In this document: positions 1 through 32,000 of the stretch, piece by piece
Layout: each line of letters opens with the position of its first letter
Numbering within the stretch: the first letter of the stretch is position 1
Translations under genes and position numbers: made by a program
Notes under the pieces: model-generated
The model's database searches: none
Told to the model about the DNA's origin: nothing
The model's input: only the letters and a program-made list of their open reading frames with translations
Assembly: GCA_963825865.1 (NCBI GenBank)
Contig: CAWGVG010000049.1
Location: 1-32,000, forward strand
DNA length: 32,000 bases
Direction of reading: 5' to 3'
DNA from: an uncultured Nitrososphaeraceae archaeon
GTDB taxonomy: Archaea; Thermoproteota; Nitrososphaeria; Nitrososphaerales; Nitrososphaeraceae

Positions 1-1388
1 CATTCCCTATGTATATGTGTAGATACAACCTCATTAACAGATTAATAATAATTTGAAATTCGAAATTGCTATTTTCCTATCACAATTTTGCCTCCTTGAT
101 AGTAATTACATTTCAAAATTTTGCATACAAAGTGTTGCTACAGCAAAGTGTTTGCTGCCTATATTAAAGAAAAAGGAGACAGCATCTGTCAATGGTGATG
201 GTAGTAGTGGAAGTGGATAACCAGGGAAGGGGCAGCTGAGATCGAATAGTAGTAGCAATGGATAACCAACAGCAACAATTAGGTAATGGCTGACTCTCAG
301 TCTTTTCCTTCACCTAAATTATAGTCTAATCTTTTTCTATTTAAAGAAAGTCTCCAAAATCGCTTCACTTGCAACATTGCTCCCCACATTAGCATCATTT
401 GGTACAGTCTACATCATTTGTTGGTGGCTTGTTCATTGAATGATTGTCACAATACTTTTTACAGTAAAGAGCTTATTTATTTCTTCGACCAACCAATTGA
501 GCTTTTATAAATTCTTTTGATTTTGAAGCCGGCTAATTATCAGTAATTTTTTGGCTAATTTGCTCTAATTCTCGTTACAGATTCTTCCTTATCGAATATA
601 CCACCATACTGTAGAAAAATATGTAATTACATATGTTCTTATGCGGTTTACATTAGTAATATTCAATACCCAATAGCTAGATGTCTAGAGCAATGGTTTT
701 ACCTTGTGCACCACCGGTAAAATTCACCAGTTAGGGCATGTAACCTTTGAAATGGAGTACATGCCCAAAGAAGTAAAAAGTGAAGGGGAAGAAGCTAAAT
801 ATGGCAAGACTCAGAATAATTAGCCTGTCACATTGCACAAGTTGGTTAGATGTCAAATGCGATGGAACGGTGCCGGCATTAGAAAAGGTAAGTTCTCTAA
901 ATGAAGGTTCTTTATGCTGGCTTAAGCTAAATGAAGACAGATCAAAGGCTAGGAGAGGCATTTACAAGATTACCGAACTCAAAAGGCAAAATTTTATTGC
1001 TGCCTGGATCGTTCTACTACAACAAATCTCCTTAGCTGAAATTTTGTTGTTTAATCTACCAACCAATTTATTACCAGTTATTACCTTCATCCTTAGTTTC
1101 AACGAGTCTAGTAGAATGTTTAAATGCATACTTAATTGATTGCACAACAAAATACTACCTGTAGTGTATTACTACTAACTAAATCACAAACTCGTTTTTC
1201 TATCCCGCTTTTATGACAGGAACTCAAAATGTGTGGCAACAACAATCAAAAAAATTTATTTGTTGTTATTTCGCCAGTTTCCTGTTCTTGCTTTTCTTCA
1301 CTTTCTTTATCGTCTCCTTTTCTTCACTTTCTTCATCATTGTAATGAGAGTATACTACCGACTATCGACTGTCTCATATTATAATCTA

Positions 1389-1683
1389 TTAAGATAGCTT
1401 ATCAATTACGTTAGCTGCTTCAGCCATTGAAAATGCTTTGAGTGTTCCAGTACGTATATTGCCTAGGCTTCCGGTAACTGAATAACACTGATGCTATTGC
1501 CTCATCATTTGGAGCCTCAATTACCGATACCATATCATATCTTCCAATCGTATAATAGAAGCCGAGAAATTTACAACCTGTTTTTTCTAATGCACTTCCA
1601 AAAGATTTAGCTCGTTTTACAGTATCTTTAACATTCTTTATTCCTTGATCTGTCCAGTTCACCAGTACGATATAATTTGGCAT
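1389..1683 (-). pseudogene. GYD-domain protein with a 1-nt frameshift near 1468-1476
   Basis: MPNYIVLVNWTDQGIKNVKDT...GFYYTIGRYDMVSVIEAPNDEA fits the GYD family. The expected C-terminus GSLGNIRTGTLKAFSMAEAANVIDKLS* is readable in another frame and ends at TAA 1389-1391. The track ORF 1420..1683 ends in out-of-frame residues. Confidence 0.75.
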
Positions 1684-1786
1684 TGTTATTGTTCAGCAAC
1701 TAAGAAAGCTAGTATGGATATATATAGATACACCGGATGCGGTTGCGAAATACAGGAAGACAAAATGTATAAGACAGTTACCATGA

Positions 1787-2092
1787 GAAGATTGGTCTGG
1801 ATATAACCAGTGGATTGGAGCCGATGGTGCTGCATTTCTTTCTGCAGGCGGGTACCATCATTACATTGGCATGAATACCTGGCATAGTTTGAACGGAGAA
1901 GCTCACTTGAGTGGAGAGGCAGGATTAGAATATTTTACAATAATAATCCCAGACAGGTCATTTGTTAAGACACTTGCTTCGCGTATACAACAACACAGCT
2001 CTATTACTTCTAATTCTAAACAGGAAAGCGAGAATCAACTGTCGTTGGTTTCTGATCCAGATCACATACAGTTTCTGATTAGGTCAGAGTAG
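1787..2092 (+). pseudogene. C-terminal fragment of a two-domain VOC (glyoxalase/extradiol dioxygenase-like) protein
   Basis: The in-frame stretch ...AAFLSAGGYHHYIGMNTWHS...GLEYFTIIIPD...DPDHIQFLI matches only the C-terminal VOC module. A TGA lies just upstream at 1784-1786 and no N-terminal domain is present. Confidence 0.6.
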
Positions 2093-2247
2093 TAGTGTAA
2101 AAAGAAGCCAACCAAGTTTTTAGTATCATGTTAATTCGCTTCGGTGCATGTATGTCATTAGCAATATCTGGCAGCAAATAATCTATGCTCTAGTTTAGTT
2201 AGTCAAAATCTGGAGAGCAGAGATATCCTTTTCTTTTAGCGGTCTGT

Positions 2248-2379
2248 ATGCCGGTCGTTGAAGAAAACATGCGACTGATGAAGACGCTGGATGACGCGTG
2301 GAATGCCTAGAACTGGGATACATTTGACGAACGTCATACTGAAGATGTCGCAGTGTCTTGGCCTGGTAAACATAGATAA
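2248..2379 (+). pseudogene. SnoaL/ester-cyclase-like (NTF2 fold) N-terminal fragment with an in-frame TAG
   Basis: MPVVEENMRLMKTLDDAWNA*NWDTFDERHTEDVAVSWPGK has its TAG at 2308-2310 and is truncated after about 40 codons. The segment is visibly GC-richer than its flanks. Confidence 0.5.
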
Positions 2380-2447
2380 ATAAACTTCAATAGCTCACTA
2401 GATATTAACTAAACTCATAGACAGCATAACAACCTGGTTAAGAATAA

Positions 2448-2729: not shown

Positions 2730-2942
2730 TTACATTTCTGATCGACTATCTTCTACTATTATTCTACCTGTCTTGCAAATAGGACAGCATACTTGTTCCT
2801 CACAGGATATATTGCCAAGCTTTCCAGATAAATCACAGTACGATACATGCCATGAACATGATTGGCACAGAAGGAGATATTTTTTGTATACGAATAATGT
2901 TTGTTTTTGGTTATTATTGGTTATAGATCCTACACTATACAT
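2730..2942 (-). CDS. Small Cys-rich (zinc-ribbon-like) protein, hypothetical
   Basis: ORF with CQSC...C...C...CCPIC spacing. The start is probably the internal MYSVGS, because the longer form overlaps the carbonic anhydrase 3' end. No recognisable family. Confidence 0.3.
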   Translation of the reverse strand: MYSVGSITNNNQKQTLFVYKKYLLLCQSCSWHVSYCDLSGKLGNISCEEQVCCPICKTGRIIVEDSRSEM

Positions 2943-3471
2943 TTGTTCTAACACTAATCCTTTTTTGTTTTATGTCTTCACCCACTCCTTCAAGCTTTCC
3001 AGTCCTCACGTCATATACGAACCCGTAGACCGGTATATCCTTTGGAAGAAAGGGGGTCGACTTTATCCTATCTACCTGATTCTTCACATTCTCCACAAGA
3101 TCTGAAAATGAGTGGAATTTGAGTTCGCTTGCATCTGCTTTGTACTTTTGGGCGAGCTTCTTTTGTAGGTCTTCATCAGCGAAGGTAAGCATTCCGCAGT
3201 CTGTATGGTTTACGACCAAGAACTCTTGTGTTCCAAGAAGCTCGTGGGAAATAATAAGTGAACGTATAGCGTCATCAGTAGCTATCCCGCCAGCGTTTCT
3301 TATAATGTGCGCTTCTCCTGTATTCAATCCCAGGAAGTCTTCCACGGTTAATCTCGCGTCCATGCATGCAAGTACCGCAAGTTTCCTCGAAGGTGGACTC
3401 GGCAGATTCCAATGCTTGAAATCCTTAGAATATTCCTCGTTTGCTGCGAGTATTTTATTTAGTTCAGCCAT
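2935..3471 (-). CDS. Beta-class carbonic anhydrase
   Basis: 178 aa with an ATG start. It has the zinc-ligand motifs LACMDARL and VVNHTDCGM plus IIRNAGG, as in Cab-type beta-CAs. A TATA-like box lies about 25 nt upstream of the ATG. Confidence 0.9.
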   Translation of the reverse strand: MAELNKILAANEEYSKDFKHWNLPSPPSRKLAVLACMDARLTVEDFLGLNTGEAHIIRNAGGIATDDAIRSLIISHELLGTQEFLVVNHTDCGMLTFADEDLQKKLAQKYKADASELKFHSFSDLVENVKNQVDRIKSTPFLPKDIPVYGFVYDVRTGKLEGVGEDIKQKRISVRTNV

Positions 3472-5172: not shown

Positions 5173-5696
5173 ATGTTAATTATATACCAGCGGTATAGTA
5201 TGCAATCAGCATATTATTATAATTAAGTTAACTATGTTAAGTAATGCAAAATCAATCCCGATAAGATGACAGAGTAAGGAAAAGAGCTATTCGGAGTTAT
5301 GGAATATTGAACAAAAAGGACTTTTACATATTCTAAAAGTCAAAATATGTGGCTATTACCAATTCGTCTATGCCTGTGTAGGTGACTAACCATTAATGAT
5401 ATAGCAAGTGAGAGTGATAGAACGGAACTATCGGATGTACAAAGAAGTCTCTATACAATGATTAGTAACAATAGTAGAGAATTCAGCCCCAAATGACAAA
5501 TATCAGGTCAAAAAGCGATTGAAGGTCAAGACCAAATGAAAGTCAATATAAGACAATGGAATGATTGGCGAATTGCTGAAATGAATTTTACAAAACTTTT
5601 GAATATTGCTTAGGACATTCTAGAAGTACGACAGCTAATTTTTGTAATACCCCTCGATATGGTCCTATTTTTTACATAATCGTTAGCAAATATATA

Positions 5697-5754
5697 GACC
5701 TATGCTTCATATAACGCTTGGATGAATGGATATAAATATATCTATCTCAATCAT
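5697..5754. repeat. 58-bp intergenic repeat, copy A
   Basis: gacctatgcttcatataacgcttggatgaatggatataaatatatctatctcaatcat differs from copy C at 18080-18136 by 2 substitutions and 1 indel. Confidence 0.85.
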
Positions 5755-7399: not shown

Positions 7400-7700
7400 T
7401 TATAGTTATTTTAGGAAATATAGGAATTTACAGAGATTCTATATTATTATCACCTAGAAGGGCCCTCTATTGGTGGAAAGGCATTTCCTTCTGTAGTAGC
7501 TTTCAAAGATGGTAAGTTACTCGTAGGAGAAATTGCTAGACGACAAATGATATCTAATCCTGAAGGTACTGTCTTAGCCGCAAAGAGGAAAATGGGAACA
7601 GATTTTAAATTCAATGTATTTGCTAAAGAGTATACTCCACAGCAGATATCTGCACGAAAACTTCAAAATAGGATAGCACAAGACACAGCAGGAATTGGTT
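7400..7700 (+). pseudogene. Hsp70/DnaK-like N-terminal fragment, frameshifted and truncated
   Basis: [65 protein letters not shown] aligns with the DnaK segment TTPSVVAF...GE.AKRQ...NP..T....KR.MG....YTPeeISA. A different frame upstream holds a possible [11 protein letters not shown] (compare IGIDLGTTNS). DnaK similarity stops after about 7690. Confidence 0.6.
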
Positions 7701-7886: not shown

Positions 7887-9046
7887 TCATAGTACCTGTA
7901 TAGCTCCACTATGATTACCCAAGCTATCAAGAGCTGCACCCTTGTCATTTAACGCTCCAATTTTATGCGGGTCAATAGCTAATGCCTTATTATAATATAC
8001 TATAGCTCCCGTATAGTTTTTTAAATTATAAAGATCACGGCCTTTGTTATATAATGCTGAAGTGTCATATGCGTCTACAGCTAATGCCTTATCGTAATAT
8101 TCAATAGCTCCAGTATGGTTACCTAAATCATCAAGAGCTAGACCTTTGTTAGTTAATGCAAAGACATTCTTCGGATCTATAAACAATGCCTTATCGTAAT
8201 ATACTATAGCTCCACTATAGTTTCCTAATTTTTCAAGAACATTACCTTTGTTATATAATGCTGCAACATCATGTGGGTCTACAGCTAATGCCTTATCGTA
8301 ATATACTATAGCTCCAGTATCGTTTCCCAAGTCGTCAAGAGCATTACCTATGTGATTTAATAGATTGTATCGAATGACGGTTCGTTATATTCTAATTTTT
8401 TTCCAGGATATAGTATAAGTGGAACTTCCATATCTCCAGTTACAACATTTGTCTGAGGATCAATAGCTTCTTTTACCATTATTTCATTTCTGCTATACTT
8501 TCCCCTTTGACTTCTTGACCAAGTTATTGATCCATGCAGCTTATACAATAGTACATCTTCACCTCTACCAGAAAAATATCCAGTTCATTCATGAGCAAAA
8601 CCGTCAAAATATTTTTTGGAATTTATAACACAAAACCGTTCAACACAAATATCATAATTGGTAGAAAAAATATGCAATGGCTTGTAAAGAGATATGAAGT
8701 CAGATAGCGGTTGTAAATATTGGATATCTATCTCCTTTTTGCCAGTACTTATTGCAACTGAGCGTTTTAATATATCAGACAAGAACTTTTTTTTGCTTGC
8801 GTATTTAACCTCTAATTGCTGGTATTTAGTTAATTTCAGATTATTATTCACAAAAAATTGGGATAAAACATTGTCATCTCTATCCTCAATCTTTTCTATC
8901 GCTTCGAGACTTGTAGATTTAAGACAGAGTACAACACCAGAAATATAGATAGGGTATGATAAAGCGAGAGCTCCAATCGGAAATCCTGAAGGCTTCAAAC
9001 CAGATGAGACAGTTTCATACTTAATTCCATCTAATACAAATTTCAA
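7887..9046 (-). pseudogene. SIR2-like (SIR2_2 type) domain fused to TPR repeats, with an in-frame TGA and a frameshift
   Basis: ...LHIFSTNYDICVERF...FDGFAHE*TGYFSGRGEDVLLYKLHGSITW has its TGA at 8585-8587, and both ORFs share one frame. A frameshift near 8335-8360 leads into at least 4 TPR units (GNxxGAIxYYDKALAxDP). Confidence 0.65.
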
Positions 9047-10308: not shown

Positions 10309-10910
10309 GGGTAGCAGTATGTGATGCATAGTTTAAAAAATGACGATGATAACTATCAACTGCTATAGAATACATTGCAAAGATGTACATTTGTACCATG
10401 TTGGAAGCTGCTTCCAAGCCGGAGGGCCAGATTTTTCAGCAAGAATTGATAGACTAGGTGGCTTCTGCGTAGTGGCCATGATGTCAGCTTGAGCCGGATC
10501 TTACATCTTGAGAAAACATATCGTGGAATAGGTCTGGGTTTATGTATGCAAATCCTCCACTATCGGTTTTCAAAAAGTCTTTTGGAAGCTTTTTGACGTC
10601 GAAGAAATCGCCTAGGATTGGCAAGCAACGTAAACAAGTCCTGTGACATTGGGATTATTATAAGCAGCGTTTGTGATTACTATTCCACCATATGAGTGTC
10701 CGACAAGAATTGTTGGTCCACCAACAGCTCAATTGCACGCTTTACCGTAGCGATGTCATCTGCCAAAGAATGAAGAGGAAGCTGTACAGCTATAACTTTA
10801 TGTCCTGTGTTCTTTAAAATGGGAATCACTTTGCTCCATGAAGATCCATCAGCCCAAAAACCATGGACTAAAACGATGTTCATACTAGTGGTTGCGTTGT
10901 TTGTTGCCAT
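10301..10910 (-). pseudogene. Alpha/beta hydrolase with at least 3 frameshifts
   Basis: NIVLVHGFWADGSSWSKVIPILKNTGHKVIAVQLPLHSLADDIATVKRAIELL is followed in other frames by GGPTILVGHSYGGIVITNAAYNNPNVTGLVYVA, then ILGDFFDVKKLPKDFLKTDSGGFAYINPDLFHDMFSQDV, then DPAQADIMATTQKPPSLSILAEKSGPPAWKQLPTWY. Confidence 0.8.
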
Positions 10911-11515
10911 ACCCTGTACTCGGGGTATATTGCAAGCCTATCTATATATACTCCATATCGGGAATCTTCTGTTCTGCTATGTTGAGTATTAAAAGTTATA
11001 ATAGAAAAAAAGATTCTGCAATTTTAGCACAGTAATTCTATAGGCATATGTAGTAGAGTATGGATATTTGTCAAAGACCCCCCATAATTCTTTGACTTTT
11101 CCATCTTCATTCTTTATGAAAAAACTTGGAAATAAGCTTTGACATTAATCTATCAGTTGTTATAATTCTATTCTAAACGTGTTAGAATAGCGGTGACGCA
11201 AATCTAAGTCTTCCTCAATATGCTCCTTCAAAGGAAGACACAAAACTAACACGTATTTCCCAAGCAAAATAAACAATGTCGTTCTATAGTTCGGCACTTA
11301 ATGGTAATAAAGAGGGAACGAATTTTATTAAGGATTTTGGGTCTATAGACCTATACATGTTGTCTTGAACATAATACTGAGCAGCTAGGATTGCATTTCT
11401 CTTTAGATAGAATTTTAAATATAGGATTATTGTTGTTGGAGTTCTAAATACATATATGCATGGTAACTTTGCAGTCAAAGCATAGTCAATATCATCTGTA
11501 TTCAAGCCACAAGAA

Positions 11516-12911
11516 TCATTGACCCGATGCAGCTGAAATCCTGTATATCTTTCCTTCACCATGACTTGACTTTTTTTCATCAAATGTCAATATATACAAA
11601 AGACCATCTGGCCCAGTCTTGATATCTGTTATGCCACGAAAACCTGTTGCAAGAGTTACTGCTGCTACTTCATTTTTATTATCAGCTACCTTATCTGATA
11701 GACCAGAAGAAGAAGAAGAAGAAGATGATGATTGTTGACTATTGCTATCTTCATTGCTATTATCAAACTTTAGTCCTGTTCTATTTTCATTAACCTCAAA
11801 GAAGTACAGATTGCCTTTGGTTATATCGCCAACAAATATGTTATTTTTGTATTTGTCTCCAAGTTTTGATGAGTTCAGAAAAGCTATGTCTGTTACACCT
11901 ATTGATTCAAACCAGCTAAAAACAGGATCGGCATATCTGGAGCCTGGAAAATTAAAAAGCTGGGATTCATTAATACTGCTGTTTCTGGAGATGGGTCCCA
12001 TCACCTTCTTCCATCCACTGTTGAAACCAGATTTCATCATAATCTTTATCGCCGTTTTCTGCATCCCATAAGGTACCAGTTACTGGATCAAATGCTAGTC
12101 CAAAACTGTTTCTTATGCCATATGCAAAATATCTGCTCATAGCTGAGCTATTGCCATTTTTCTCAGATAAAAATGGATTATTCTTAGCTGGATAGCCATT
12201 ATCAGGGTTTATTCTTAGTATTACAGATGTATCATCTGGTTCTGGTCCATCTATGAAATTCTGAAGTTTTCCCTGTCTGTTAAGGTCTCCTATAACTGCA
12301 TATAGATATTGATCAGGACCAATTGCCAATTTTCCACCAGGATGATTTTGACCCTCTGCAGGAAGGTCTAAAATAAGCTTGGGGTTTATAAGCGTCTCTC
12401 CATTCCATTGGTATTTGTAAACTCTATTTCTTACAGGCTGGTCACCTTTGGCTGCTTCTGAAAGATAAAGAAAAACTTCTCTACTGTTATTGCTGCTGTT
12501 GCTGTTACTTGCTTTAGTTGCTATTCCCAAAAGGCCACGACAGCATATTCGAGTGGAATTATCAATATCGACTTTCAGTACAGGTTGGTCTTTTAATACG
12601 CCATTTGAAACTAGACGTACTTCTCCATTATTCTTTTGTAGAATCAAAATATCTTTGTTGTTGTTGTTGTTGATAAATGCCATACTAGTTGGATAAGATA
12701 ATCCTTGTACTACTAATTCGGCTCTTAAGTTAGGATCATTAAAAGTTGGTTCTGTAGAACTTGCTTCTGCTTCTTTGATATTGGTGGCATAGACATCACT
12801 AACAAAAAAGTGTCTGCTATAAACACTAAAATTTGATAAAATAAACAAAACCATAACTGCTAATGCTATTACTGGTATAGTAGAAGAACAATAATAATAA
12901 AGTCTATACAT
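11516..12911 (-). pseudogene. PQQ-type glucose/sorbosone dehydrogenase beta-propeller, one frameshift near 12027-12033
   Basis: It has a signal anchor (MYRLYYYCSSTIPVIALAVMVLFIL) and the motifs RGLLGIA, NHPGGKLAIGPDQYLYAVIGD, ILRINPDNGYPAKNNPF and AYGIRNSFGLAFDPVTGTLWDAENGDKDYDEI. The frame then switches to GFNSGWKKVMGP...GPDGLLYILT...GKIYRI. Poly-Asn and poly-Ser inserts are present. Confidence 0.8.
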
Positions 12912-13029
12912 AGAATTAATTTCGTTCTTATAACACATAGTAAGTATTTGTTCTTTTTGAACTTTAGAACAAATAAGAGCAATAACAACAATAAGCATAA
13001 AGTCTGCCCATGTGAATTGCATTTAAGCG

Positions 13030-17370: not shown

Positions 17371-17582
17371 GATGAACGGTCAGTTCTTAGAGCTTTGTTA
17401 GATACGAGAGCAAAAGGGTTAGATGAAAAGATGCTTGTAACTGCATCGTATGCAATCGCTTCGCTAGTTGAAAAGACTCACTTGAATGAAAACTATGTAA
17501 TTCCCAAAGTAAACGACCAAGGGTTCTCCCAGTTGTGACAGAGACGTTAAAAGAGGCAATCGTACCAGTATCTACTAAATGA
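17371..17582 (+). pseudogene. Malic enzyme C-terminal fragment, with a frameshift near 17525
   Basis: VLRALLDTRAKGLDEKMLVTASYAIASLVEKTHLNENYVIPKVND fits the malic enzyme tail (RGALD.RA..i.eeM..AA..AiA.lv....yiiP). VLPVVTETLKEAIVPVSTK* follows in another frame. Confidence 0.55.
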
Positions 17583-18040: not shown

Positions 18041-18079
18041 ACTAAAATTATAGATAAATATATATATTTAATTTTAGTA

Positions 18080-18434: not shown

Positions 18435-20027
18435 CATTTTTCTACCCCTGTTGAATTGTCAAGAAACAGCTTTTCGCAGGATGACTATTTGTAAAGTTAA
18501 ACATGTTCATAATTGATCCAGCTTTGGCATCAAATGATTGATCTCCAATACGCTTCAGGCCCCAATTATCCTCTATAAACCTAATTATGGATGTCTGGTC
18601 TGTAATCTCATGATCAACATAGTTTACCTGGAGATATTATCAATAAAGGAAGGCGAGGCCCATAACCACATCTGTCTTGATAAGCACCTGCAGGAGCGTG
18701 GCCACAAAGGCCATCCTTGCCAAGGAGCCTATCGTAAACGGGGTCGTTGGATTGACTGACTATCTGTGGCATTACATGATCATACCATCCATCTGAGTCA
18801 TCATAAGTTATAATGACTGCTGTACTATTCCATTGTGGTAGATTTTGCAAGCGGTTAGTAGTATTAACTAGAAAAGTCTGTTCATCAAGTGGATTAGAAA
18901 ATCCTGGATGTCCACTTTGGAATGAGGGGGCCTTGAGAAAACTAACTGCAGGTAAATTGCCACTTTCACGGCTCTCCAGAACATACTCAGATTATATTGA
19001 TGATTTGCTTGGTCACCATTACCGACCATTGCTACTGAAGTTGGGGATAGATGATGAGGATTGGCTGTAGAATTATAGTACTGGAAAGGTTCAACATCTG
19101 GATAATAGTCATTCTGTTGAGTATTATTATTAGTCAAGATAACTCCGTTGTATGAGCAAAGCCATTTACCATTAGCTATTTTAATAGATGGTGTGAAACC
19201 TGCTGAAAACCATCCCCATGTTACATTATTTTTCTCATTAAGACGATCACCTATGTTCTTATTCTTATCTGACATGACTATTGTAGGATTTGTGTGATTT
19301 GAACAATCATCATTGGTGGGATCTAGGTTACCTATCAAGGTACCTTTAACAACACGGTTTTTAATGTCGGTTGATATAACATGACCTTTACTGTCTCTTG
19401 GTATCACACCATGAGTCTGACCAGAAATAAAGTTAAGATGTCCTGGAGTTGAAGGCCCAAAGGTAGGACTAAAGAAATTATCGCTCATTGCAAAGTGTTG
19501 CGCATAGTTCCATAATGCTGTTACAGTATTACCATCATAATGTCCCATGACCTGATGTAGGCGGCAGGCACATTACAATAATCTCGATAAGGGGATGTAG
19601 AATTTACAAAGTTGTCCAAAAGACCACCGTTAGTTGCATTCTGCTCAGCTGTGTAACCATGATTCATGTCACAAGTTACAGCTCGGGAGCGATCTAGACG
19701 GAATGGCTGATATTGATTTGTATTATTAGTCAATTGGGCTCCAGTTAAACCATTAACTGATGGTGTGTTTGGAGAAGGTGAAAAGTGAGGTTCACCAGGT
19801 AGATTTGTAGTATTAGGATAAGTAGCAAAATAGTGATCGAATGAAATATTTTCTTGAAAGATGACTACAAGGTGTTTAATAGGTTTAGCTGTTGAAAAAT
19901 TACTAGGAGCAGCAGAAGCTTTCGTTGCAACTGATATTAGCGACGTACCAGATAAAATTGACGAGATTATTAGTAATAAAGCTAAAAGTACATTTGTTGA
20001 TATCTTATTCAATAGGTGCAGTTGCAT
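18435..20027 (-). pseudogene. Phosphoesterase-family acid phosphatase / phospholipase C (AcpA/PlcN type) with four frameshifts
   Basis: A signal peptide is followed by IKHLVVIFQENISFDHYFATYP. After shifts near 19550, 18965, 18625 and 18480 the pieces read VMGHYDGNTVTALWNYAQHFAMSDNFF..FGPSTPGH, then GNLPAVSFLKAPSFQSGHPGFSNPLDEQ...AVIITYDDSDGWYDHV, then YVDHEITDQTSIIRFIEDNWGL, then KLFLDNSTGVEK*. Confidence 0.85.
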
Positions 20028-20478: not shown

Positions 20479-20885
20479 TCAAACTATCTGGATGATTGAT
20501 ACTTGATGCGCTATAGCATGTGATGTATTGATAAAAACATACCTGATATTAATACTACCACTGACTTTAATGGCTGCGGCTGGTAGTATTGTACTGGATA
20601 ATGATAATACCGCATTTGCAAAAAACAAACCAGTAAATAATGGCCCGGCTGCATTAGGTTTTAGACCAGAAGTCAGAAATCTTAATTTTAAGCCCAAGCC
20701 TCTTTGTTGCTCTTATTACAGCACAACAAGCCTTGATGGCTGGACTTGAACCTTCTATATTTTGACTAACCGAATCTATTGCTGTATCTCTTACGAAATC
20801 ACTTAGACCGAGTTGTTTTGAAAGCCTTTCAACATACTCTGCTGCATCTAAAGCAGGAACATAGTCTATTTCTGACATAGTTTGC
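20479..20885 (-). pseudogene. TFIIB (TFB) cyclin-fold remnant, frameshifted, no zinc ribbon
   Basis: [61 protein letters not shown] fits the TFB repeat (dyv.Rf...L.l...v...A......sG.sP..iAaA.iy.A). A shifted frame further on holds AAAIKVSGSINIRY (compare VTEVTIRNRY). Confidence 0.5.
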
Positions 20886-21032
20886 ATAACGCTTTTTGTC
20901 GCGATTCCAAAATCCATACACGAGGATCGGATCCGAGAGAACAGTCAGGTATTCGACTTCGATCTTGCGCCTGATGATATGAAACTCCTAGACTCGCTGA
21001 ACGAGAATTTGCAAACAGTATTCTTTGATTAG
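20886..21032 (+). pseudogene. Aldo-keto reductase C-terminal fragment
   Basis: ...[44 protein letters not shown] matches the AKR tail (IPKS...Ri.EN..vFDF.L...dm..l..Ln). It is GC-richer than the flanks and no upstream barrel is present. Confidence 0.6.
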
Positions 21033-21449: not shown

Positions 21450-21944
21450 ATGACAACAAATTCAAAACTAAGCAAGAAAGTGCAGATACCGGCGGCAGTC
21501 ATAGCTGTTACTGCTGTTTTTTTGACAGGAATGTTGGCAGTATATCCGGCAGTAGCTGCTGTAGGTTAATCAATGAATACGATTACTACTATGGCTCCAG
21601 GATATGGAGGGCAAATTCCAAATATCACAGGTTCAGTAAACGTTGGACAGACAGCTAAAAGTTTTATCAAGGATAATCTCAAAATACCTTTTTCACAAGC
21701 TGCCGACATTGCAGGAAAACAAAACACCAATGGTACTGTGGTAGGCGGTCATCTGGGAATAGTGCAAGGATATCTGGTATACAAATTCTTTGCAGTGAAT
21801 CCTACAAATCATACAGGGTATCTAACTATTGTTGATGCTGGAAATGGCAAGGTATTGTATACATCGCAAGGTCAACAAATGGGAGGTTCCTTTTGTACAC
21901 ACGGAGCAATTGGTGGAGCATTTGGAGCACGTCCACTACACTGA
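21450..21944 (+). pseudogene. PepSY-domain protein with an in-frame TAA between the signal anchor and the domain
   Basis: MTTNSKLSKKVQIPAAVIAVTAVFLTGMLAVYPAVAAVG*SMNT... has its TAA at 21567-21569 in the same frame. PepSY-like sequence follows: FSQAADIAGKQNTNGTVVGGHLGIVQGYLVYKFFAV...LTIVDAGNGKVL. Confidence 0.6.
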
Positions 21945-22186: not shown

Positions 22187-22966
22187 CTAGCATAGCTTTA
22201 TGTCCTCTGCATGCAGTATCTGTACATGATTATCCATCCATTGAGTTACCGCAATCCCAAATGCTGAACTCCCCCATGCAGGATCTATACCCATTGATTT
22301 AGAACTAAAGTATGAAGAACCAATAGCGTCAGGATCGTATTTCCTTCCTTTCTCTATTGCTGCTTCTATGTCTTTTGTGTGGAATACATTACCTATTTTA
22401 CCATGATATTTTAGGTTGTATTCCCGTTCAAATGAGGGTGATTGTTTAGCTCTTTTTTATCTTGGCGGTATATTTTGCCAATTCCATAAGTATAATCCAA
22501 GAATATGCGTTTGTACAAACAAGTGTCTTCAGACTCTTTTTCTATTCTTTCAAACAAACCATCAGGTGCATTAGGAGTTGAAACCATCACAATATATGGA
22601 TTTGATTTTGCAATGTACCTCTCGCTTACATCCCTAGCATCTTGCTGCTGTCCTGGAGGAAAGAAATCAGCTTCGTCTAACAGTATGAAGGATACGTTAG
22701 GTAGACCACGCATTGCATCTAAATGATGCGAGGGAAATGCTTAAAGAATCATTTTCATAGTCATATAGAGGCTTATCAATTCCATCTTTCTGAGGCAGTC
22801 CAATAATGTGATTAAGGCAGCAACATCCTTTTGTTCTTATGTCTTCTTGCTTCTGTTCTTCAATATTCCATATCCAAAATGGTTTACCCTTCAGTATTTC
22901 GCTTAACCGAGATTGCTGCTGTGTTGTTGCTAAGCAAACTATTTTCTTTAGATCTTTGAAAGTCAC
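22187..22966 (-). pseudogene. Terminase large-subunit-like ATPase/nuclease, frameshifted, internally deleted and 3'-truncated
   Basis: MTFKDLKK...CCCLNHIIGLPQKDGIDKPLYDYE is followed by HLDAMRGLPNVSFILLDEADFFPPGQQQD...IVMVSTPNAPDGLFERI (Walker-B-like), then YNLKYHGKIGNVF...MGIDPAWGSSAFGIAVTQWMDNHVQILHAEDI in three frames. The Walker-A region is missing. Confidence 0.6.
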
Positions 22967-23275
22967 TCTTCGACTAGTTATACATTTACATTGGCCGCAT
23001 TAGAAACTTTCGATTTGCAATATAATTAAACGTATGTTACTTAAGACTAGAATCTTGATTGATTTAAGATGTAAGAAGGTTAGAAGAATGATAATCAATT
23101 ATGATCCACAGGTTTGATAAGTACTGTCATTATTCTTCAGCTAACCTAGATAAAAATTTGATATAACAGACCAGATTAGTCGATTTGTGCTATCGATGTT
23201 ATCTGTAATACATAGATTATCCTAACAGTATAATGGTGCATCAGGATCAAGAAATGTCTTATATAGTACACAGAT

Positions 23276-25315
23276 ATGAATACTACATTGTCAGAAGGGA
23301 ATTTAGTAGAAAAATCACCAGTTTCGGATAACAGTGGAGATACTACTTATAATGAATGGCATACTGGATATATTCAAGGCAATACTTTTCACCAGAAGGA
23401 AGTCAAGTACAAAATAATTGATGATATGGCGATTTTTCAAGGGGATATTATTCTTGCCAAAACTCCAGAACACCTAGAAAAGCTTAGTCAAAAGCCTAAG
23501 GTGCAAAGCGAACAGGAACCACCTGCAGCAAGACATGTATCTGTAAAGGCCATTGTAAGACATGGGGATGAGCTTCGTTGGCCACGTGGAGAGATACCTT
23601 ACGTAATTCAAAATACACTTCCAAATCAAGAGCGCGTTAATGATGCAATCAAACATTGGGAGGAGAGAACACCAATGCGCTTTATTCAGCGCAATGATAA
23701 CAACGCTCGAATTACCCAAACTACGTCTCAATTATACAATATGTTCGCAAGCCAAACGAAAGATCAGACCTTTTTCATTGCTCATCAGCCATTGGGATGC
23801 AAAACTGGGGAGAACAGAATATAATTATATCTGATCAATGTGTTACTGGCGATGCAATACATGAGATTGGACATACAGTAGGACTTTGGCATGAGCAAAG
23901 CAGAAGTGACAGAGATGATAACATAAGAATTCTAACTATTAATATTGAGCCCAAAGACATACAGAATTTTGACAAACATTTTACAGATGGTGATGATGTA
24001 GGGGAATATGACTACTGCTCAATAATGCATTATGGTACGAATTTCTTCTCTAAAAATGGACTTCCAACAATAGAACCAATAAAACCGTTAAATGGTTGTG
24101 TATTAGGACAAAAGAACGGACTAAGTAATGGAGATATAGGCAGCAGTTATTGAAATGTATGGAAATACATCTCCTACCATATTGAAAAATGCTGATGGTA
24201 GGCTGGAAGTAACTCATAGTACGTTCGGATGGCTATTTGTACCGTAAACTACAGATGGCAGCAAATAGTAGTAGTGGATGGGATAAGGAATGGAATTCAT
24301 TGGAACTGCGAGCAACGTTTTTCTTCTGGCCAGAAACCTACAATAGTAAAGAATTCTGACGATACTCTAGACGTCTTCTGGGTTGATGTTGGAAACCTAA
24401 ATCATGCTTACCAGAGTGCACCAAATGGTTCATGGAGTAATGAGAATCTTCATGAAAGTTATGGACAAGGATACCTTGGTGCTCCTGTAATACATGATGT
24501 TGGTAGTAGATTAGATGCCTTTTGGCTAAACCACGACGAATGGAGAACACTCCATCATGCACGGCGAGACACATTGTCAAACCGTAGATTTAGTTCTACG
24601 CAGGTTTTAGGAGGACCAACGTGGTCTCCTAACAGAAAACCTGCTGTAGCACAAAATGCTGATGGTAGGCTGGAGATATTTATAACAGGTCTGGATAGAC
24701 AGCTATACCACAAATGGGAGGAAACTACACCAAATAATAGTAACCAATGGTCTAACTGGACTTCACGGGGAGGACCCTTACTAGCTGATCCTGTGGTAGC
24801 TCGTAACACGGATGGTAGGCTGGAGGTATTCGCAGTATTTGGTAATAATAGGGCACTATGTCATAGATGGCAGACTACAAGAGTCAAAGATAACACTGGC
24901 AAAGACACTGACGAGTGGAATTGGTCTAATGGATGGGATAGCTTGGGAGGATATTGGTCTGCTCGTAAAACACCCGCAGTAGCATTGAACGCAGATGATA
25001 GATTGGAGGTATTTATGATGGGTAAAGAAGACCAACTGTATCATACATGGCAGACTACAAGAGATACCAGGTACTGATAGATATGATTGGTATTCCGAGT
25101 GGGAAATGATTAAAAAAACGAAAAAAACTCCAGATGGAAAAACTGAAATTGAAAAGTGGCCGCTAAGCGGCAATCCTGCTGTGGGGCGTAATCCTAACGG
25201 TACATTAGATGTATTTATGATAGATAAATATGGAAATGTCAACCATAGATGGCAGACTACAAAAAATAACGGTCCTGGCAAGTGGAATTGGTCTGATGAT
25301 TGGCAAATAATATAA
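23276..25315 (+). pseudogene. Astacin (M12A) zinc metalloprotease fused to a 7-blade beta-propeller lectin-like domain, with at least 5 frameshifts
   Basis: The catalytic motif IHEIGHTVGLWHEQSRSDRD and the Met-turn SIMHY are intact. Seven repeats of the type NADGRLEVF...LYHxWQ...WSxWxSLGG follow. Frame changes lie near 23702, 24139, 24212, 24322 and 25070. No signal peptide is seen. Confidence 0.85.
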
Positions 25316-26114: not shown

Positions 26115-26189
26115 AAAGATAGTACATTATTATGATCAAAAACATTTGTATTACAAAGATAAAGGTCGGAATTTCATATATTATTATGT

Positions 26190-26393
26190 ATGTCTCTCAT
26201 GAAAACTCTAATTTATTTTTTTAATATATTAAAGATACAAGAAGATAACGAAATTTATAGAAATGCGTTGGCACTTGTACAAAAAATTCCAATAAAATCT
26301 GTAAATGTAGATCGTGATAGCAACGACAATGATAGTAATGAATGGATTAGTGCTATGAAGACTATAGCATATGCATATTCTTCACTAAAATAA
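26190..26393 (+). CDS. Hypothetical 67-aa protein
   Basis: ATG-initiated ORF with no recognisable family. Confidence 0.25.
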   Translation: MSLMKTLIYFFNILKIQEDNEIYRNALALVQKIPIKSVNVDRDSNDNDSNEWISAMKTIAYAYSSLK

Positions 26394-26424
26394 TACTACT
26401 TCCTATATCTTTTCCCAATCACAA

Positions 26425-27196
26425 ATGTCTGACTTTCTGACCTTATCTGCAAAGGGTATAGAAGAGAAAAGAATGAGTTCAGAAATAATAGACAATTTAA
26501 TCTTCAAGATTTATAGAGATATTATGGAAAATTATCAGGAATTTAGTCAAAATTTAAAGTCAAACTACCCTGGAATTATTGTTGACGTTATCTCTATTAT
26601 TAACCAAGGTATGGATACTAAAGGAACCAAAGTAAGTTCAATTAGTATTGGGAGATACTACCAATCAAGAAAGCAGCAAGCAACAATGAGTAAAGAAGAA
26701 CGGGAAGAGGAAGGGAAAACTCCAGCAACAGTAACAGCAACAACAGCAGCCGCTATCCATAAAATGAAAGCCCATTACTATCATTGTACTCAAAGAATGA
26801 CCTTGTTGAAAGTCTTTCCCAAATAACAAATAGAGGAAGAAAAGAGATACAAGAATCACTTGCAAGATTGCAAGATTCAGACCTAAAACGGATAAGTGAA
26901 CTATGCCACAACTATAGTAGATTACAACACTATAGCAAAATAATAACAAAAGAAGGCTCACAAGAACAATTTAAAAAAGAAATACAAAGAGACTAGGAAG
27001 AAAGCTGAGATTTCATCAACTTGGACGAGCTGCTAACTCTATAAGAAGAGCTCGAACCTATATTGAGAATATACTTGATAATAAATTCATACCTGATGCA
27101 TCGCATGGTATTAATCATGTTAAACATAACCTTGAGTATGGTTATCAGTTGATGAATCTAATTGAGCGTACAAGAAGAAGACAAAGGATTCAATAA
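26425..27196 (+). pseudogene. Composite ORF ending in a truncated HD-domain N-terminus, with two apparent frameshifts
   Basis: Three consecutive overlapping frames read MSDFLTLSAKG...AAAIHKMK, then PLLSLYSKNDLVESLSQITNRGRKEIQESLARLQDSDLKRISEL..., then KLRFHQLGRAANSIRRARTYIENILDNKFIPDASHGINHVKHNLEYGYQLMNL...*. The last piece looks like the start of an HD phosphohydrolase but stops before the second His/Asp cluster. Confidence 0.35.
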
Positions 27197-28075: not shown

Positions 28076-28549
28076 ATGAGAATTTTGAATGCTAGCCCGG
28101 GATTTGGAGCGCCATTAACAGAGAGTGAGGTTATCAACTTTTTGACAAACAGCAAATTAAATATTCATATTGGTACACTTGATAAGAAAGGAGAGCCAAA
28201 TATACATCCAACATGGTATTACTTTGATAGTAACGATAATAGATTTTACATTGAAACATCTAAGCAGTCAAGAAAAACAGAAAACATGGACACAAATAAT
28301 ATCATTTACTATTGTGTTGATGATCCTAGCCCTCCATACAAAGGAGTTAGAGGTAAGGGAAAAGTCAAAATTCATGAAGACATCAGTCATAATATCCCTA
28401 TAGCTGAAAAGATAATGATCAGATATCTCGGAAGTCTTGAGCACCCAATGGCAAAAGTTCTTATGAGTAGTGTTAAGAATGGAGATTCAATTATTTTAGA
28501 AATATCTCCTAGTTATTATTCAACTTGGGATTATAGCAAAAGGAAATAG
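28076..28549 (+). CDS. Pyridoxamine 5'-phosphate oxidase (PNPOx/FMN-binding split barrel) family protein
   Basis: 157 aa. ...IGTLDKKGEPNIHPTWYYFDSNDNRFYIETSKQSRKTENM...YKGVRGKGKVKI is typical of the PNPOx-like family. Confidence 0.7.
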   Translation: MRILNASPGFGAPLTESEVINFLTNSKLNIHIGTLDKKGEPNIHPTWYYFDSNDNRFYIETSKQSRKTENMDTNNIIYYCVDDPSPPYKGVRGKGKVKIHEDISHNIPIAEKIMIRYLGSLEHPMAKVLMSSVKNGDSIILEISPSYYSTWDYSKRK

Positions 28550-28806: not shown

Positions 28807-29372
28807 ATGACCGTAATAGTAGTAGATGAGGCAAAGCTAGGTAGCAACAAAATCCTTAGACTTGTTAAAGGATATATCACAGAAAGAGATGTCGATGTCA
28901 TAGTAAATGCTGCAAATTCTTATCTAAAACATCGTGGAGGAGTTGCAGCTGCCATAGTAAGAAAGGCTGGAGCAATAATTCAAGAAGAAAGCGACAGGAT
29001 AGTAGCAGGAGGCTTTGTCCCGGTTGGTTGAGCAGTGATTACTACAGCTGGAAAATTACCATGTAAGGCAGTAATACATACAATCGGTCCAAGTGTGGGT
29101 GAAGGTGATGAAGATAATAAGCTACTAGAGCAGTTCAAAGTACTCTGGCATTAGCTGCAGGAAAGGAGTTCAAAAGTATTTCAATGCCAGCAATAAGTTC
29201 TGGAATATTTGGTTTTCCTAAAGATAAATGTGCAAAGATACTTGTAGAAGAATCAAAAAGGTTTCTTGTAGAAAATAAATCTTCTCTTGAATCTATAGAA
29301 TTTTGTATATTTGATAATGAGATTCCATATTGCTTTGAAACTGAATTTGTTAATGTCAATGATATAAAATGA
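28807..29372 (+). pseudogene. Macro domain (ADP-ribose binding/hydrolase) protein with an in-frame TGA and a frameshift
   Basis: [36 protein letters not shown]...[24 protein letters not shown] has its TGA at 29029-29031. A shift near 29135 leads to [37 protein letters not shown].... Confidence 0.8.
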
Positions 29373-29624
29373 AATGAAATGTAGATAATGACCTTCTAAG
29401 GCTATCTGCTAACCAATTCTATATCTATTGGTAAGACAACACAAACATCATCAACAACAACAACATATACTCAATCATTTTGGACAAAAGGTGTGCCAAT
29501 GCCGCCTACACCAAGAACAGAAGTTATTACCTTATCGATATGGTCATACTATAGTTGGATAAAACAGTATGCTTAAATGCAGTTCACAAGGTAGTTTTAT
29601 GCATTTTTGTTCTAACAGAAAAAC

Positions 29625-31052
29625 CTACCACCATTGATTTACTATACAGTCTAGCAACGTTCCGTCGAATGTTATTATCCCATACTCATACTTTTCTGTC
29701 GTATCTGAATCTCTACGCTGCAAATAAAAATCTCTATTTCTTGTATTGTCGTCTTTACCTAATTTTTGAAAAGCTGTTTCCTTATAGGAGTGTGCAGAAT
29801 GATAATTCGGATCGATCTCCAAAGCTTTATCATAAGATATTATAGCTTCCTCATATCTGTCTAAGAAGTAAAGAATCTCGCCTTTACTTTTCCAGATATA
29901 TGGATTGTCTGCGTATTTTGAGTTATGCTCTAAAGCCTTATTTATGCAGTCTAAGGCTTTCTCCATCCTTTCTCTTTCATCGAATCCATCCATACCACAT
30001 CTCCTATCTGATTTATACGCAAGAGTATAACAAAGTTGAAGCCATACATCTGCTGAGTTATTTTTATAATTTGAATTGATTTCACTGGCCTTATCATAGC
30101 ACTTGATGGCGTCATCCCATCTACCCCATCCTTCATGAATCAAACCTTTCTTAATCCATGCCTTTGCATGATTCGGATTTATCTCTATTATCTTATCGTA
30201 GCAGTTCATCGCCTCAATTTCATGATTAATACATTCATCTCTGGACTCATAGGCATCGAGAAGGAATAAGCCTTTGTTATACAATAGCTCTATATTATTA
30301 TTATTATTTGGATTTTTCTTGACAGCCTTATCATAAGATTCAATGGCTTCATTACACAATATCCTTGAAGTATAAGGCGTTTTCCTATTTACCTCTACTA
30401 TTTTATCATAACATTTAATGGCCTCATCGTATCTTTTCAATTCATAAAAAGTATTACCTCTTTCATGCCATATCGTAGCGTCATCATCATTTGGATTTAG
30501 TTCTTTTACCTTATCATAACATTGCTGCGACTCTTCATATTTTTTTAAAAAGCAAAGAATATTGCCTTTTCTATTCCACGCTTGAATATTATTTGGATTT
30601 ATTCCTAATACTCTATGATACCATACAAGAGATTCTTTATATTTTTTTAAAGTATAAAGAGTATTGCTCTTGCCAACACAGGCTTCAAAATTATTTGGAT
30701 CCGCCTCTATTACTATATTATAGCATTCTAAAGCTTCATAATAATATTCGTACTTTTTATGAAACGTGCCTAACTTGATAATAGCATCAAGTTTGCATTT
30801 CAATATTTCAGGATAGTCAATGTTACTTATCTTGAGAGCTTTGTCATAGCAGTTTATACCTTCATCGTATTTTTCCAGTCTACAAAAAGCATCACCTTTT
30901 TTCTTCCATGCTTCAAATAGATTTGAGTTTATTTGGATAGCTTTATCATAACGCTCAATAGCTTCTTTATATCTGCATCTATCGTAAAAGGTATTGCCTC
31001 TTCTATACCATTTCGATCCTTTAACTGGTATAGCAGCATCCGAATCGGCCAT
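29625..31052 (-). CDS. TPR-repeat protein (475 aa), intact
   Basis: More than 10 TPR units of the form W..kG..l..l..Y.EAi.cYDKa.eInP. Confidence 0.85.
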   Translation of the reverse strand: MADSDAAIPVKGSKWYRRGNTFYDRCRYKEAIERYDKAIQINSNLFEAWKKKGDAFCRLEKYDEGINCYDKALKISNIDYPEILKCKLDAIIKLGTFHKKYEYYYEALECYNIVIEADPNNFEACVGKSNTLYTLKKYKESLVWYHRVLGINPNNIQAWNRKGNILCFLKKYEESQQCYDKVKELNPNDDDATIWHERGNTFYELKRYDEAIKCYDKIVEVNRKTPYTSRILCNEAIESYDKAVKKNPNNNNNIELLYNKGLFLLDAYESRDECINHEIEAMNCYDKIIEINPNHAKAWIKKGLIHEGWGRWDDAIKCYDKASEINSNYKNNSADVWLQLCYTLAYKSDRRCGMDGFDERERMEKALDCINKALEHNSKYADNPYIWKSKGEILYFLDRYEEAIISYDKALEIDPNYHSAHSYKETAFQKLGKDDNTRNRDFYLQRRDSDTTEKYEYGIITFDGTLLDCIVNQWW

Positions 31053-31208
31053 CTTTCCATCAGTTATTTAATGAACGTAATTTATTTATTTTTTCACACA
31101 TGCAAAGTCAGTTCAACTACAGACCAAGATGCCTTCTTGTACATGCAATCAAAAACATAATCCAAAGTTATGATGTGATATTTATTTTGGTGTCCATACG
31201 CAGCCATA

Positions 31209-31334
31209 TTATTTTGTTATCCTAAAAGAATCAACTATTTTTTGTGCAGTTGGCAAGAATGTATTGTAATATGCCGCATCGCCATCAAATGAAAGCCAAT
31301 ATACTATACCATTCTTTATAGTAAAAATGTTCAT
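31209..31334 (-). pseudogene. C-terminal remnant of an unidentified protein
   Basis: MNIFTIKNGIVYWLSFDGDAAYYNTFLPTAQKIVDSFRITK*. The same frame continues upstream (…GKNGNCISYPSRPKIIE). An adjacent frame reads TNYGYSFRLPWEK across an A-run. The function is not assigned. Confidence 0.2.
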
Positions 31335-31446
31335 TTCGATTATTTTTGGTCGTGAGGGATAGCTGATGCAATTACCATTTTTTCCCAGGGTAACCTGAAA
31401 GAGTAGCCATAATTAGTATCCGCTATTAGTGGAACTATAAAAAAGA

Positions 31447-31623
31447 AGTCCTCCTGGGGATCTGAATGATCTTAAGGCAAACAAAAATGTTACTTACTGT
31501 TCTGGCGGATATAGAGGAAATATGGTTGCAGAGGAGTTAAACAAGCAAGGATTTGATGCTGTAACTATTGAAGGAGGCTATTCTGCTTGGAAAGACGAAG
31601 AGATAAAGACAAAAATAGAATGA
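31447..31623 (+). pseudogene. Rhodanese-domain C-terminal half, no start codon
   Basis: GDLNDLKANKNVTYCSGGYRGNMVAEELNKQGFDAVTIEGGYSAWKDEEIKTKIE* includes the active-site loop CSGGYRG. A TAA lies directly upstream and the N-terminal half is absent. Confidence 0.6.
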
Positions 31624-31923
31624 AGAATAAGATTGTCGAAGACTTGGAAGCTGAACCAGAGCTCGAAAAAGTACAAGAAGAGCAACAACAACAGCCTGTT
31701 CCAGTAACGCAGTGAATTATCTAATCCAGACAGATAGACTTAACGATATGGCATAAAAAAACAATTCCTAATTTCTTTTTTGAATAGCAGAATAACAATT
31801 TTGGGTTTGGTGTAGGTAAGGAGATAATGAATATATTCTCTTCATACCAGTAGATTATGTTCTCCTTTGTTCAATCAAGAATTGAACTATTTTAGTATAT
31901 GGAAAATCAACTATGATCAATAG

Positions 31924-32000
31924 AATAATGAAAACATAAAGCCCCTGTTTAAGGTAGTTGGAATGTATTGCACTTCATGCAAACCAATTGTAGTTAATTT
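31924..32000 (+). CDS. Start of a heavy-metal-associated (HMA) domain protein, partial at the window edge
   Basis: NIKPLFKVVGMYCTSCKPIVVN contains the GMxCxxC metal-binding motif. The start codon is unclear, because an in-frame TAG lies at 31921-31923 and no ATG precedes the motif. Confidence 0.35.

Follow-up and report, generated by a model that had tools for sequence, protein, structure and literature searches.

Gene Content of the Window

The DNA examined here, referred to as the window, is a stretch of 32,000 nucleotides (positions 1-32,000, forward strand) of contig CAWGVG010000049.1 from assembly GCA_963825865.1 of an uncultured Nitrososphaeraceae archaeon. It carries genes for an AcpA/phospholipase C, an astacin protease with a PLL-type beta-propeller, a glucose/sorbosone dehydrogenase (GSDH), an IS110-family transposase, a macro-domain protein and a GYD-domain protein, all of which are interrupted. 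A first-pass annotation had described the window as a region of extreme pseudogene density. The broken frames are indeed present in the sequence; most of them are, however, specific to this one assembly, and no evidence of an extreme wave of recent decay was obtained.

The window has a GC content of 36%. Stop-to-stop frames of at least 100 amino acids (aa) cover just 49% of it, and only three frames reach at least 300 aa. Pfam was run on all open frames of at least 40 aa, concatenated per strand in genome order, and identified Phosphoesterase/AcpA, Astacin, GSDH, Macro, GYD, IS110 transposase, Hsp70, rhodanese and SIR2_2 as split or partial genes. The intact genes are mainly short, with the exception of a 475-aa TPR protein and a 293-aa secreted protein. 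A tRNA scan and an Rfam scan of the whole window yielded zero matches.

Each Assembly Breaks Its Own Set of Genes

A search with the reconstructed AcpA protein retrieved intact homologues of 60-70% identity from metagenome-assembled genomes (MAGs) of Nitrososphaeraceae and Nitrosopolaris and, in addition, one 327-aa fragment of 98% identity. This fragment is encoded on contig_67085 (54,483 bp; loci L002 and L004) of assembly ERZ25039464 in the European Nucleotide Archive (ENA), which is colinear with window positions 5387-29401 at 99.2% identity. Counts of differences between the two assemblies refer to these 24 kb compared with L002 and L004, positions 29402-32000 lying outside the comparison; contig L006, which matches the window across 201 bp only, was left out.

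Between the two assemblies there are 74 indel events and equally many substitutions (74); of the 63 indel events that fall in the L002 part, 56 involve a single base pair. The 1:1 ratio of indels to substitutions, with indels located throughout coding sequence, makes the pattern unlike that of diverging strains. The first-pass annotation had noticed that the indels lie mostly outside homopolymers, and this was borne out, with only 5 of 64 single-base indels in runs of at least four; homopolymer error, fitting just these 5 of 64, was accordingly rejected. The conclusion drawn from it, namely that indels outside homopolymers must be real, fails as the errors cluster at methylation motifs (see below). 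Two of the indel sites singled out earlier, GAGCAGTTC in the macro-domain gene (29125) and GATATAGGCAGC in the astacin gene (24139), turned out to be exact sites of disagreement between the assemblies.

About 20 frame-breaking lesions are private to the window, and a comparable number is private to the ENA contig and located in other genes. The ENA assembly carries intact genes for the macro-domain protein (188 aa), the astacin-propeller protein (672 aa), the IS110 transposase (331 aa), GSDH (494 aa) and the GYD-domain protein (97 aa). Conversely, it breaks three genes that are whole in the window. The beta-carbonic anhydrase gene (2935..3471, minus strand; 178 aa, Pfam Pro_CA) is split into 86 and 85 aa by two indels, both at AGCT sites. 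The gene for a PNPOx-like "general stress protein 26" (28076..28549, plus strand; 157 aa, Pfam PNPOx_N, cluster members 156-157 aa) is shortened to 131 aa by two differences of ENA's own. The 293-aa secreted protein, which belongs to no known family and is intact in the window according to the list of open reading frames (ORFs) (15128..16009, minus strand), is reduced to 222 aa via a 2-bp difference at 15873; an exact look-up of this listed ORF among protein records returned no match. The "pseudogenes" are thus not reproducible, each assembly having its own broken set.

A mosaic sequence, in which the frame-lengthening allele was chosen at each site, raised the coverage by frames of at least 100 aa to 0.66, compared to 0.50 for the window and 0.58 for the ENA contig. 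It restored GSDH (513 aa), the IS110 transposase, AcpA, the astacin-propeller protein (681 aa), the macro-domain protein (192 aa) and a 344-aa protein.

For AcpA (18437..20027, minus strand), the Pfam Phosphoesterase match extends over four frames in the window, with lesions at 19565, 18969, 18630 (8 bp) and 18475. Combining the window alleles at 19923 and 19467 with the ENA alleles at 19565, 18969, 18630 and 18475 yielded an unbroken ORF of 536 aa, in agreement with the homologue lengths of 517-539 aa. The 90% cluster of AcpA includes an intact 533-aa protein from a contig (L003) of the Joint Genome Institute (JGI). Three- and four-way alignments demonstrated that all four window frameshifts are found in the window alone. 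Neither of the two ENA frameshifts occurs in the JGI contig or in the window; position 19468, a GTAC site, shows an extra base in a second ENA contig (L005) as well. At this single site, three assemblies of long-read style (ENA and window) give three different calls. Changes unique to the JGI contig comprise 14 substitutions, one in-frame 3-bp deletion and one non-coding base. In a scan of the genome collection with the restored AcpA, relatives reached at most 61% identity, the best at species level being Nitrosopolaris and Nitrososphaeraceae MAGs at about 60%.

In the carbonic anhydrase gene, compared across three assemblies, the JGI-unique changes are nine substitutions and no indels, the encoded protein being identical to that of the window, and window-unique changes were none. 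ENA-unique changes are two indels and six substitutions, and both indels as well as five of the six substitutions lie at AGCT or GCAGC. Taken together, the JGI-unique changes in AcpA and carbonic anhydrase amount to 23 substitutions, one in-frame codon indel and one non-coding base. An accurate independent assembly thus restores the frames, as seen in the JGI contigs with the intact 533-aa AcpA and the identical carbonic anhydrase.

The remaining frameshifted genes show private lesions as well. In the GYD-domain gene (1420..1683, minus strand; 87 aa, Pfam GYD 1-67 of 91), the window has an extra T at 1476 within GTAC, and in the IS110 transposase gene (13211..14210, minus strand; Pfam DEDD_Tnp_IS110 and Transposase_20) the C of GATC is lost at 14196; both breaks are artefacts. 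GSDH (11519..13044, minus strand) matches its Pfam family in two stretches, and its frame is disturbed in the window by two 1-bp insertions located at an AAGCTT site (13003 and 13006) and by the loss of 14 bp at 12029. The gene also shows in-frame length differences between the assemblies, of 9 bp at 11726 in a Ser-rich tract and of 3 bp at 12657 in an Asn-rich tract; unlike the single-base indels, these repeat-length changes look like normal microsatellite polymorphism between strains. The astacin-propeller gene (23276..25312, plus strand), with Pfam Astacin in two stretches in the window but Astacin and Beta-prop_PLL in the intact ENA copy, carries six window-only single-base indels (23707, 24139, 24211, 24310, 25070 and 25273). 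A metagenome scan for close relatives of this protein found none. The in-frame TGA at 25473, listed earlier among the nonsense codons, lies past the end of the gene (the ENA end maps to ~25296-25312) in a stretch with no Pfam match.

In the macro-domain gene (28807..29372, plus strand; Pfam Macro in two stretches) a base is missing at 29125, adjoining AGCT. Its in-frame TGA at 29029-29031, formerly taken as a sign of decay, is made by a window-only substitution, ENA having TCA. The region 26163..27193 (plus strand) encodes a protein with a tail resembling the start of an HD domain, its frame being disrupted in the window at sites such as 26763 and 26992. What had been called an "HD" stub is actually the tail of this longer ORF, which appears as 257 and 58 aa in ENA and as 344 aa in the mosaic; a search against Pfam gave noise-level matches only. 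The window's broken fragments appear as separate proteins in public collections, for instance pieces of 168 and 226 aa of AcpA and of 69, 118 and 282 aa of the astacin protein; the errors of the assembly have thereby already reached the databases.

Comparison of orthologous loci, which the first-pass annotation had itself suggested as a check, revealed that intact versions exist in the ENA and JGI contigs. Seven genes that it had listed as broken are whole elsewhere: GYD, GSDH, IS110, astacin-propeller and macro in ENA, AcpA in JGI, and the "HD" protein by mosaic. For these seven genes, and for one of the five stops, the reported decay is an assembly artefact.

Disputed Sites Cluster at Methylation Motifs

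The sites at which the two assemblies disagree are strongly concentrated at four short motifs, AGCT, GTAC, GATC and GCWGC. Scored within 2 nt of a motif in either assembly, 48 of the 74 indels (65%) and 36 of the 74 substitutions fall at these motifs, compared to a background of 10.3% (p ~1e-29 and ~1e-16, respectively). As the four motifs were picked post hoc, the test was rerun with the published motifs AGCT, GTAC and GATC fixed beforehand. These three alone account for 34 of the 74 indels (p = 2e-17) and 32 of the 74 substitutions (p = 1.6e-15) within 2 nt, at a background of 8.5%. No enrichment was observed for the control palindromes CATG, AATT, TCGA, GGCC and CGCG, and the control TGCA was marginal for indels (7/74, p = 0.037). 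An excess of substitutions was also noted at CCGG (6, p = 1e-5).

The strongest indel hot spot is GCWGC (loosely GCNGC), with 23 of the 74 indels within 2 nt compared to a background of 2.4%. Among the sites in the compared sequence, about 40% of those with GCWGC show an indel difference and about 30% of those with AGCT differ between the assemblies; we know of no natural mutation process acting at such a rate per site. Different motifs go along with different errors: GATC, a motif of N6-methyladenine (m6A), is associated with 15 substitutions and 4 indels, and AGCT, GTAC and GCWGC chiefly with single-base indels. Transition/transversion ratios gave no separation of motif-linked from other substitutions.

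Three of these motifs are known methylation targets in the lineage. A REBASE survey (PMC10609329) described persistent orphan methyltransferases recognizing GATC (m6A) in 27 of 29 Nitrososphaerota genomes, and methyltransferases for GTAC and AGCT, producing N4-methylcytosine (m4C), in 8 of 8 Nitrososphaerales each. AGCT methylation has also been observed in marine Thaumarchaeota MAGs (PMC8919816). The three motifs of the orphan methyltransferases (PMC10609329) are those enriched at the disputed sites here. GCWGC differs in that it is not among the motifs reported there; the window contains no methyltransferase gene. For this lineage, GCWGC is a candidate for a fourth modified motif.

Lesions Common to Both Assemblies

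A minority of lesions is found in both assemblies. The clearest case is a SIR2-like pseudogene (8360..9046, minus strand), in which the Pfam SIR2_2 match spans an in-frame TGA at 8585-8587. This codon is Trp in six of six aligned homologues (TGG to TGA), the stop is present in both assemblies, and no motif lies nearby. The gene has also lost its C-terminal third, and its N-terminal GAGAS motif has degenerated. The pseudogene is genuine, and TGA 8585, listed among the in-frame stops in the first-pass annotation, is the clearest true nonsense mutation in the window.

An alpha/beta-hydrolase fragment (10394..10926, minus strand) was aligned across the two assemblies and a JGI contig that carries a complete homologue of 281 aa (92% identity). 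A 19-bp deletion at ~10623 is common to both assemblies, and similarity is gone at the 5' and 3' ends of the gene in both; these lesions of the fragment are genuine. To them each assembly adds private, motif-linked errors, those of the window being located at 10724 and 10501. The earlier description of a frameshifted hydrolase therefore holds for the shared deletion and the missing ends, but the frameshifts at 10724 and 10501 are the window's own errors. The terminase-like gene, also reported as broken, is so: this remnant (22190..22999, minus strand) extends over three frames, gave weak matches to the terminase large subunit in PHROGs (E = 0.014 and 0.032), and is recognizable until ~22190, where its 3' end is truncated. 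Its frames are more fragmented in ENA than in the window, and the mosaic of the two assemblies failed to restore either this gene or the hydrolase. A PepSY-domain gene (21450..21944, plus strand; Pfam PepSY, E = 0.0024) has an in-frame TAA at 21567-21569, between membrane anchor and domain, and the same stop is found in ENA.

The class of genes reduced to terminal stubs was supported in part. An Hsp70 fragment (7472..7654, plus strand; Pfam HSP70, 40.7 bits, profile 29-87 of 599) is colinear in ENA with one single-base difference at 7580 and is probably a true remnant. The C-terminal end of a rhodanese (31489..31599, plus strand), located to the right of the compared stretch, was found by Pfam (Rhodanese 57-101 of 102) with 20.5 bits against a cut-off of 22.2. 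Three weaker stubs, also present in ENA, remained below threshold: a malic-enzyme C-terminus (17377..17526, plus strand; Malic_M 202-241 of 258, E = 0.0038, below the curated threshold), a TFB cyclin repeat (20657-20917, minus strand; TFIIB, E = 0.0058) and an aldo-keto-reductase (AKR) C-terminus (20898-21014, plus strand; Aldo_ket_red 256-291 of 291, E = 0.019), the latter two being convergent within 20657..21014. By contrast, the putative VOC-like C-terminal stub (1817..1990, plus strand), which carries its label from the first-pass annotation and lies within the diverged left part of the window, had no match in Pfam (E <= 1), PHROGs or PDB sequences, and its surroundings (1807-1830) contain four indel differences from ENA. 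Likewise, the integrase-like fragments, including a putative C-terminal one so labelled earlier (16397..16558, minus strand; same sequence in ENA), had no match in Pfam (E <= 1), PHROGs or PDB sequences.

A repeat search further identified two extra copies of the AcpA 3' end, covering the last ~15 codons (16657-16713 and 16986-17026, plus strand, 313 bp apart). They are inverted relative to the true gene end (18427-18473) and translate to AAKLFLDNSTGLEK compared to KKLFLDNSTGVEK in the gene. Within 5387-29401 the terminal stubs mostly have the same sequence in both assemblies. Most recognizable stubs represent gene 3' ends, two of them from AcpA and the others from malic enzyme, AKR, TFB and rhodanese, a bias which may reflect repeated insertion or exchange events. 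Altogether, the real gene remnants form a modest and ordinary set.

Strain Variability, Breakpoints, and Repeats

The compared assemblies also differ in structure. At a breakpoint at 5245..5250, ENA has ~2.76 kb of extra sequence (L004 5480-8236), including two fragments of response-regulator genes. The left 5.2 kb of the window are 95.9% identical to ENA, compared to 99.2% on the right side, and this step in identity at ~5245 points to a boundary of recombination or replacement. For the AcpA gene, identity is 98% with the JGI contig (L003, window 18144-20142) as well as with the second ENA contig (L005, 18385-20671), and similarity around it ends within a few hundred bases on each side, so that three strains have different surroundings. 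In a further JGI contig (L001), which is 98.9% identical over the carbonic anhydrase gene, similarity ends downstream of window position 2848 (L001 808), where an unrelated 150-aa protein is encoded; position 2848 is another breakpoint between strains.

Observations bearing on a possible decayed mobile element or variable island are the IS110 transposase, the weak terminase-like matches (E = 0.014), the integrase-like fragments that matched no database entry, the absence of tRNA genes, a 60-bp direct repeat and the AcpA flanks that differ in three strains. The two copies of the non-coding 60-bp repeat (5695-5754 and 18078-18136) are 95% identical and 12.4 kb apart, and the right copy lies just past the end of similarity with the JGI AcpA contig (18144). 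The repeat could be a pair of attachment sites, but the JGI contig lacks it, and no empty site was found.

Two additional repeats were noted. A 55-nt inverted repeat (13008-13062 and 29537-29591, 85% complementary) is located just upstream of GSDH and of the gene for the 475-aa TPR-repeat protein (29625..31052, minus strand; intact, Pfam TPR families, JGI cluster members 469-474 aa), and may be a shared promoter or leader element. A 33-bp direct repeat (27412-27444 and 28654-28686, 94% identical) flanks the genes for a 99-aa membrane protein and the PNPOx-like protein.

Origin of the Lesions

Directly observed are the assembly-specific lesions, the restoration of the genes elsewhere and the clustering at motifs. 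These findings argue strongly that most breaks are consensus errors of the Nanopore type at methylated motifs, superimposed on an ordinary gene-poor and variable island, a reading which we regard as very probable. The platform, most likely Oxford Nanopore, was deduced from the contig naming and the error pattern, and methylation is most likely the cause. The ENA assemblies ERZ25039464, ERZ25039575 and ERZ25039578 carry Flye-style "contig_N" names, which are also found in the Microflora Danica long-read MAGs, including Nitrososphaeraceae MAGs. For Microflora Danica, Nanopore reads alone were assembled with Flye and polished once with Medaka (Sereika et al. 2025, PMC12313526), and coding densities below 75% were described there chiefly for low-coverage, low-GC archaeal MAGs (PMC12313526). 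Nanopore errors induced by methylation, mainly substitutions, have been documented by Lohde et al. (2024, Genome Res, PMC11610573).

The window belongs to the MAG of a low-GC, ammonia-oxidizing soil archaeon. According to this explanation, these archaea would methylate AGCT and GTAC (m4C), GATC (m6A) and apparently also a GCWGC-like site, and signals in the pore would be distorted by the modified bases. Where coverage is modest, a single base would then be gained or lost in the consensus, or a wrong one called, at or beside the motif sites. About 1.5 errors per kb would place a false frameshift in nearly every gene longer than ~700 bp and mostly spare short genes, and the errors would overlie a naturally gene-poor, strain-variable region holding few true remnants.

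Several points weigh against this explanation. The 8-bp and 14-bp window-only deletions in AcpA and GSDH are atypical of base-calling error and could be real, and about one third of the indels is distant from all four motifs. GCWGC was derived from the same data and has no independent support in the lineage. Single-base indels dominate here, whereas Nanopore errors linked to methylation have been published chiefly as substitution ambiguities. Platform and coverage of the window's assembly rest on inference rather than on reads, and the ENA assemblies are only possible members of the Microflora Danica project. Finally, the intact JGI copies stem from other strains (98-99% identical) and hence demonstrate working genes in the population, which is not proof for this strain.

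The most obvious alternative, that the strain is in fact losing genes through recent true frameshifts, nonsense mutations and truncations, appears quite unlikely for the window as a whole. It would account for the lesions common to the two assemblies (the SIR2-like TGA, the hydrolase with its 19-bp deletion and lost ends, the truncated terminase-like gene and the stubs), and the 8-bp and 14-bp deletions could be true as well. However, lesions shared by relatives, which would be expected of a pseudogene region, were found only for this minority and the PepSY stop, and not for GYD, GSDH, IS110, AcpA, astacin, macro and the 344-aa protein. Nor does the spectrum resemble that of evolutionary mutation, in which substitutions would far outnumber indels and show no tie to motifs: there are as many indels as substitutions, and nearly all differences seen in the accurate JGI contigs are substitutions. 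That lesions are concentrated at methylation motifs, that the ~20 frame breaks private to the window have a similar number of counterparts private to ENA in other genes, and that a mosaic of two assemblies gives a full AcpA all speak against real decay. A variant in which the motif-linked indels are real, methylated sites being hot spots of indel mutation, for example by error-prone processing of m4C or m6A, so that strains carry shifting sets of frameshifts, is very unlikely since every window-specific lesion is missing from three other assemblies and none occurs in the accurate JGI contigs. Less far-reaching than mutation hot spots, and more likely, would be an origin of the shared stubs as scars left by repeated exchange of cassettes within a variable island.

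Reads of co-occurring strains collapsed into one consensus might also lead the assembler or polisher to produce chimeric indels, with no contribution of methylation. Several related strains are indeed present in the samples, as contigs of 96-99% identity and differing AcpA flanks indicate, and the third of the indels located away from the four motifs would fit such mixing. Still, we consider it unlikely: it predicts neither the clustering at AGCT, GTAC, GATC and GCWGC (p down to 1e-29) nor three distinct miscalls at one GTAC site, and where the JGI contigs reveal true differences between strains, these are substitutions rather than single-base indels. Programmed events, that is, conserved frameshifts or stop readthrough decoded by the cell, are barely conceivable. 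The sole point in their favour is that catalytic motifs are still readable in the broken genes, but the interruptions differ even between contigs of 99.2% identity, homologues are uninterrupted, and the lone gene in which TGA replaces Trp has, in addition, a degenerate N-terminus and no C-terminal part. As the sites are not conserved, programmed frameshifting was rejected.

Comparison with Known Systems and Implications

Pseudogene-rich genomes such as those of Mycobacterium leprae or of recently host-restricted symbionts like Sodalis combine many frameshifts, stops and truncations with a low coding density. Their lesions reproduce across strains and sequencing methods and have no tie to methylation motifs. 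Unlike these, most lesions of the window are private to one assembly. Members of Ca. Nitrosocosmicus are low-GC soil ammonia oxidizers whose finished genomes have coding densities of 74-77% (PMC6657660, PMC5398378). They share with the window a GC content near 34-36%, many short ORFs and long non-coding stretches, although the window organism is not a known Nitrosocosmicus. Frames of at least 100 aa make up 66% of the corrected region, which is gene-poor, yet not far from normal for low-GC soil ammonia oxidizers.

The lesions resemble the methylation errors of Nanopore sequencing (PMC11610573) in being non-random, in recurring at short motifs and in varying between assemblies of the same organism; the published errors vanish in data free of the modification signal. 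Those errors are mainly purine or pyrimidine substitution ambiguities in bacterial isolates (PMC11610573), whereas here an archaeal MAG, whose platform is deduced, shows single-base indels at m4C-type motifs (AGCT, GTAC and GCWGC) and substitutions at GATC. The low-density MAGs of Microflora Danica (PMC12313526) likewise represent low-GC archaeal genomes with low coding density and Flye-style contig names. There, low coverage and long homopolymers were blamed (PMC12313526), whereas methylation motifs explain most of the single-base indels here and homopolymers of at least four only 5 of 64; the window is a possible member of that data set.

The window thus represents a public genome, probably a species representative, with ~1.5 false indels per kb in this region. 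Such errors inflate pseudogene counts, fragment protein predictions and pollute protein databases. As a caution, a frameshift outside homopolymers is not by this fact a real one, since methylation motifs are a second source of systematic error. At the same time, the error hot spots recovered the known methylation motifs of Nitrososphaerales from sequence comparison alone, and they point to GCWGC. The biology that is left is an ordinary one, a strain-variable, gene-poor island with few true remnants.

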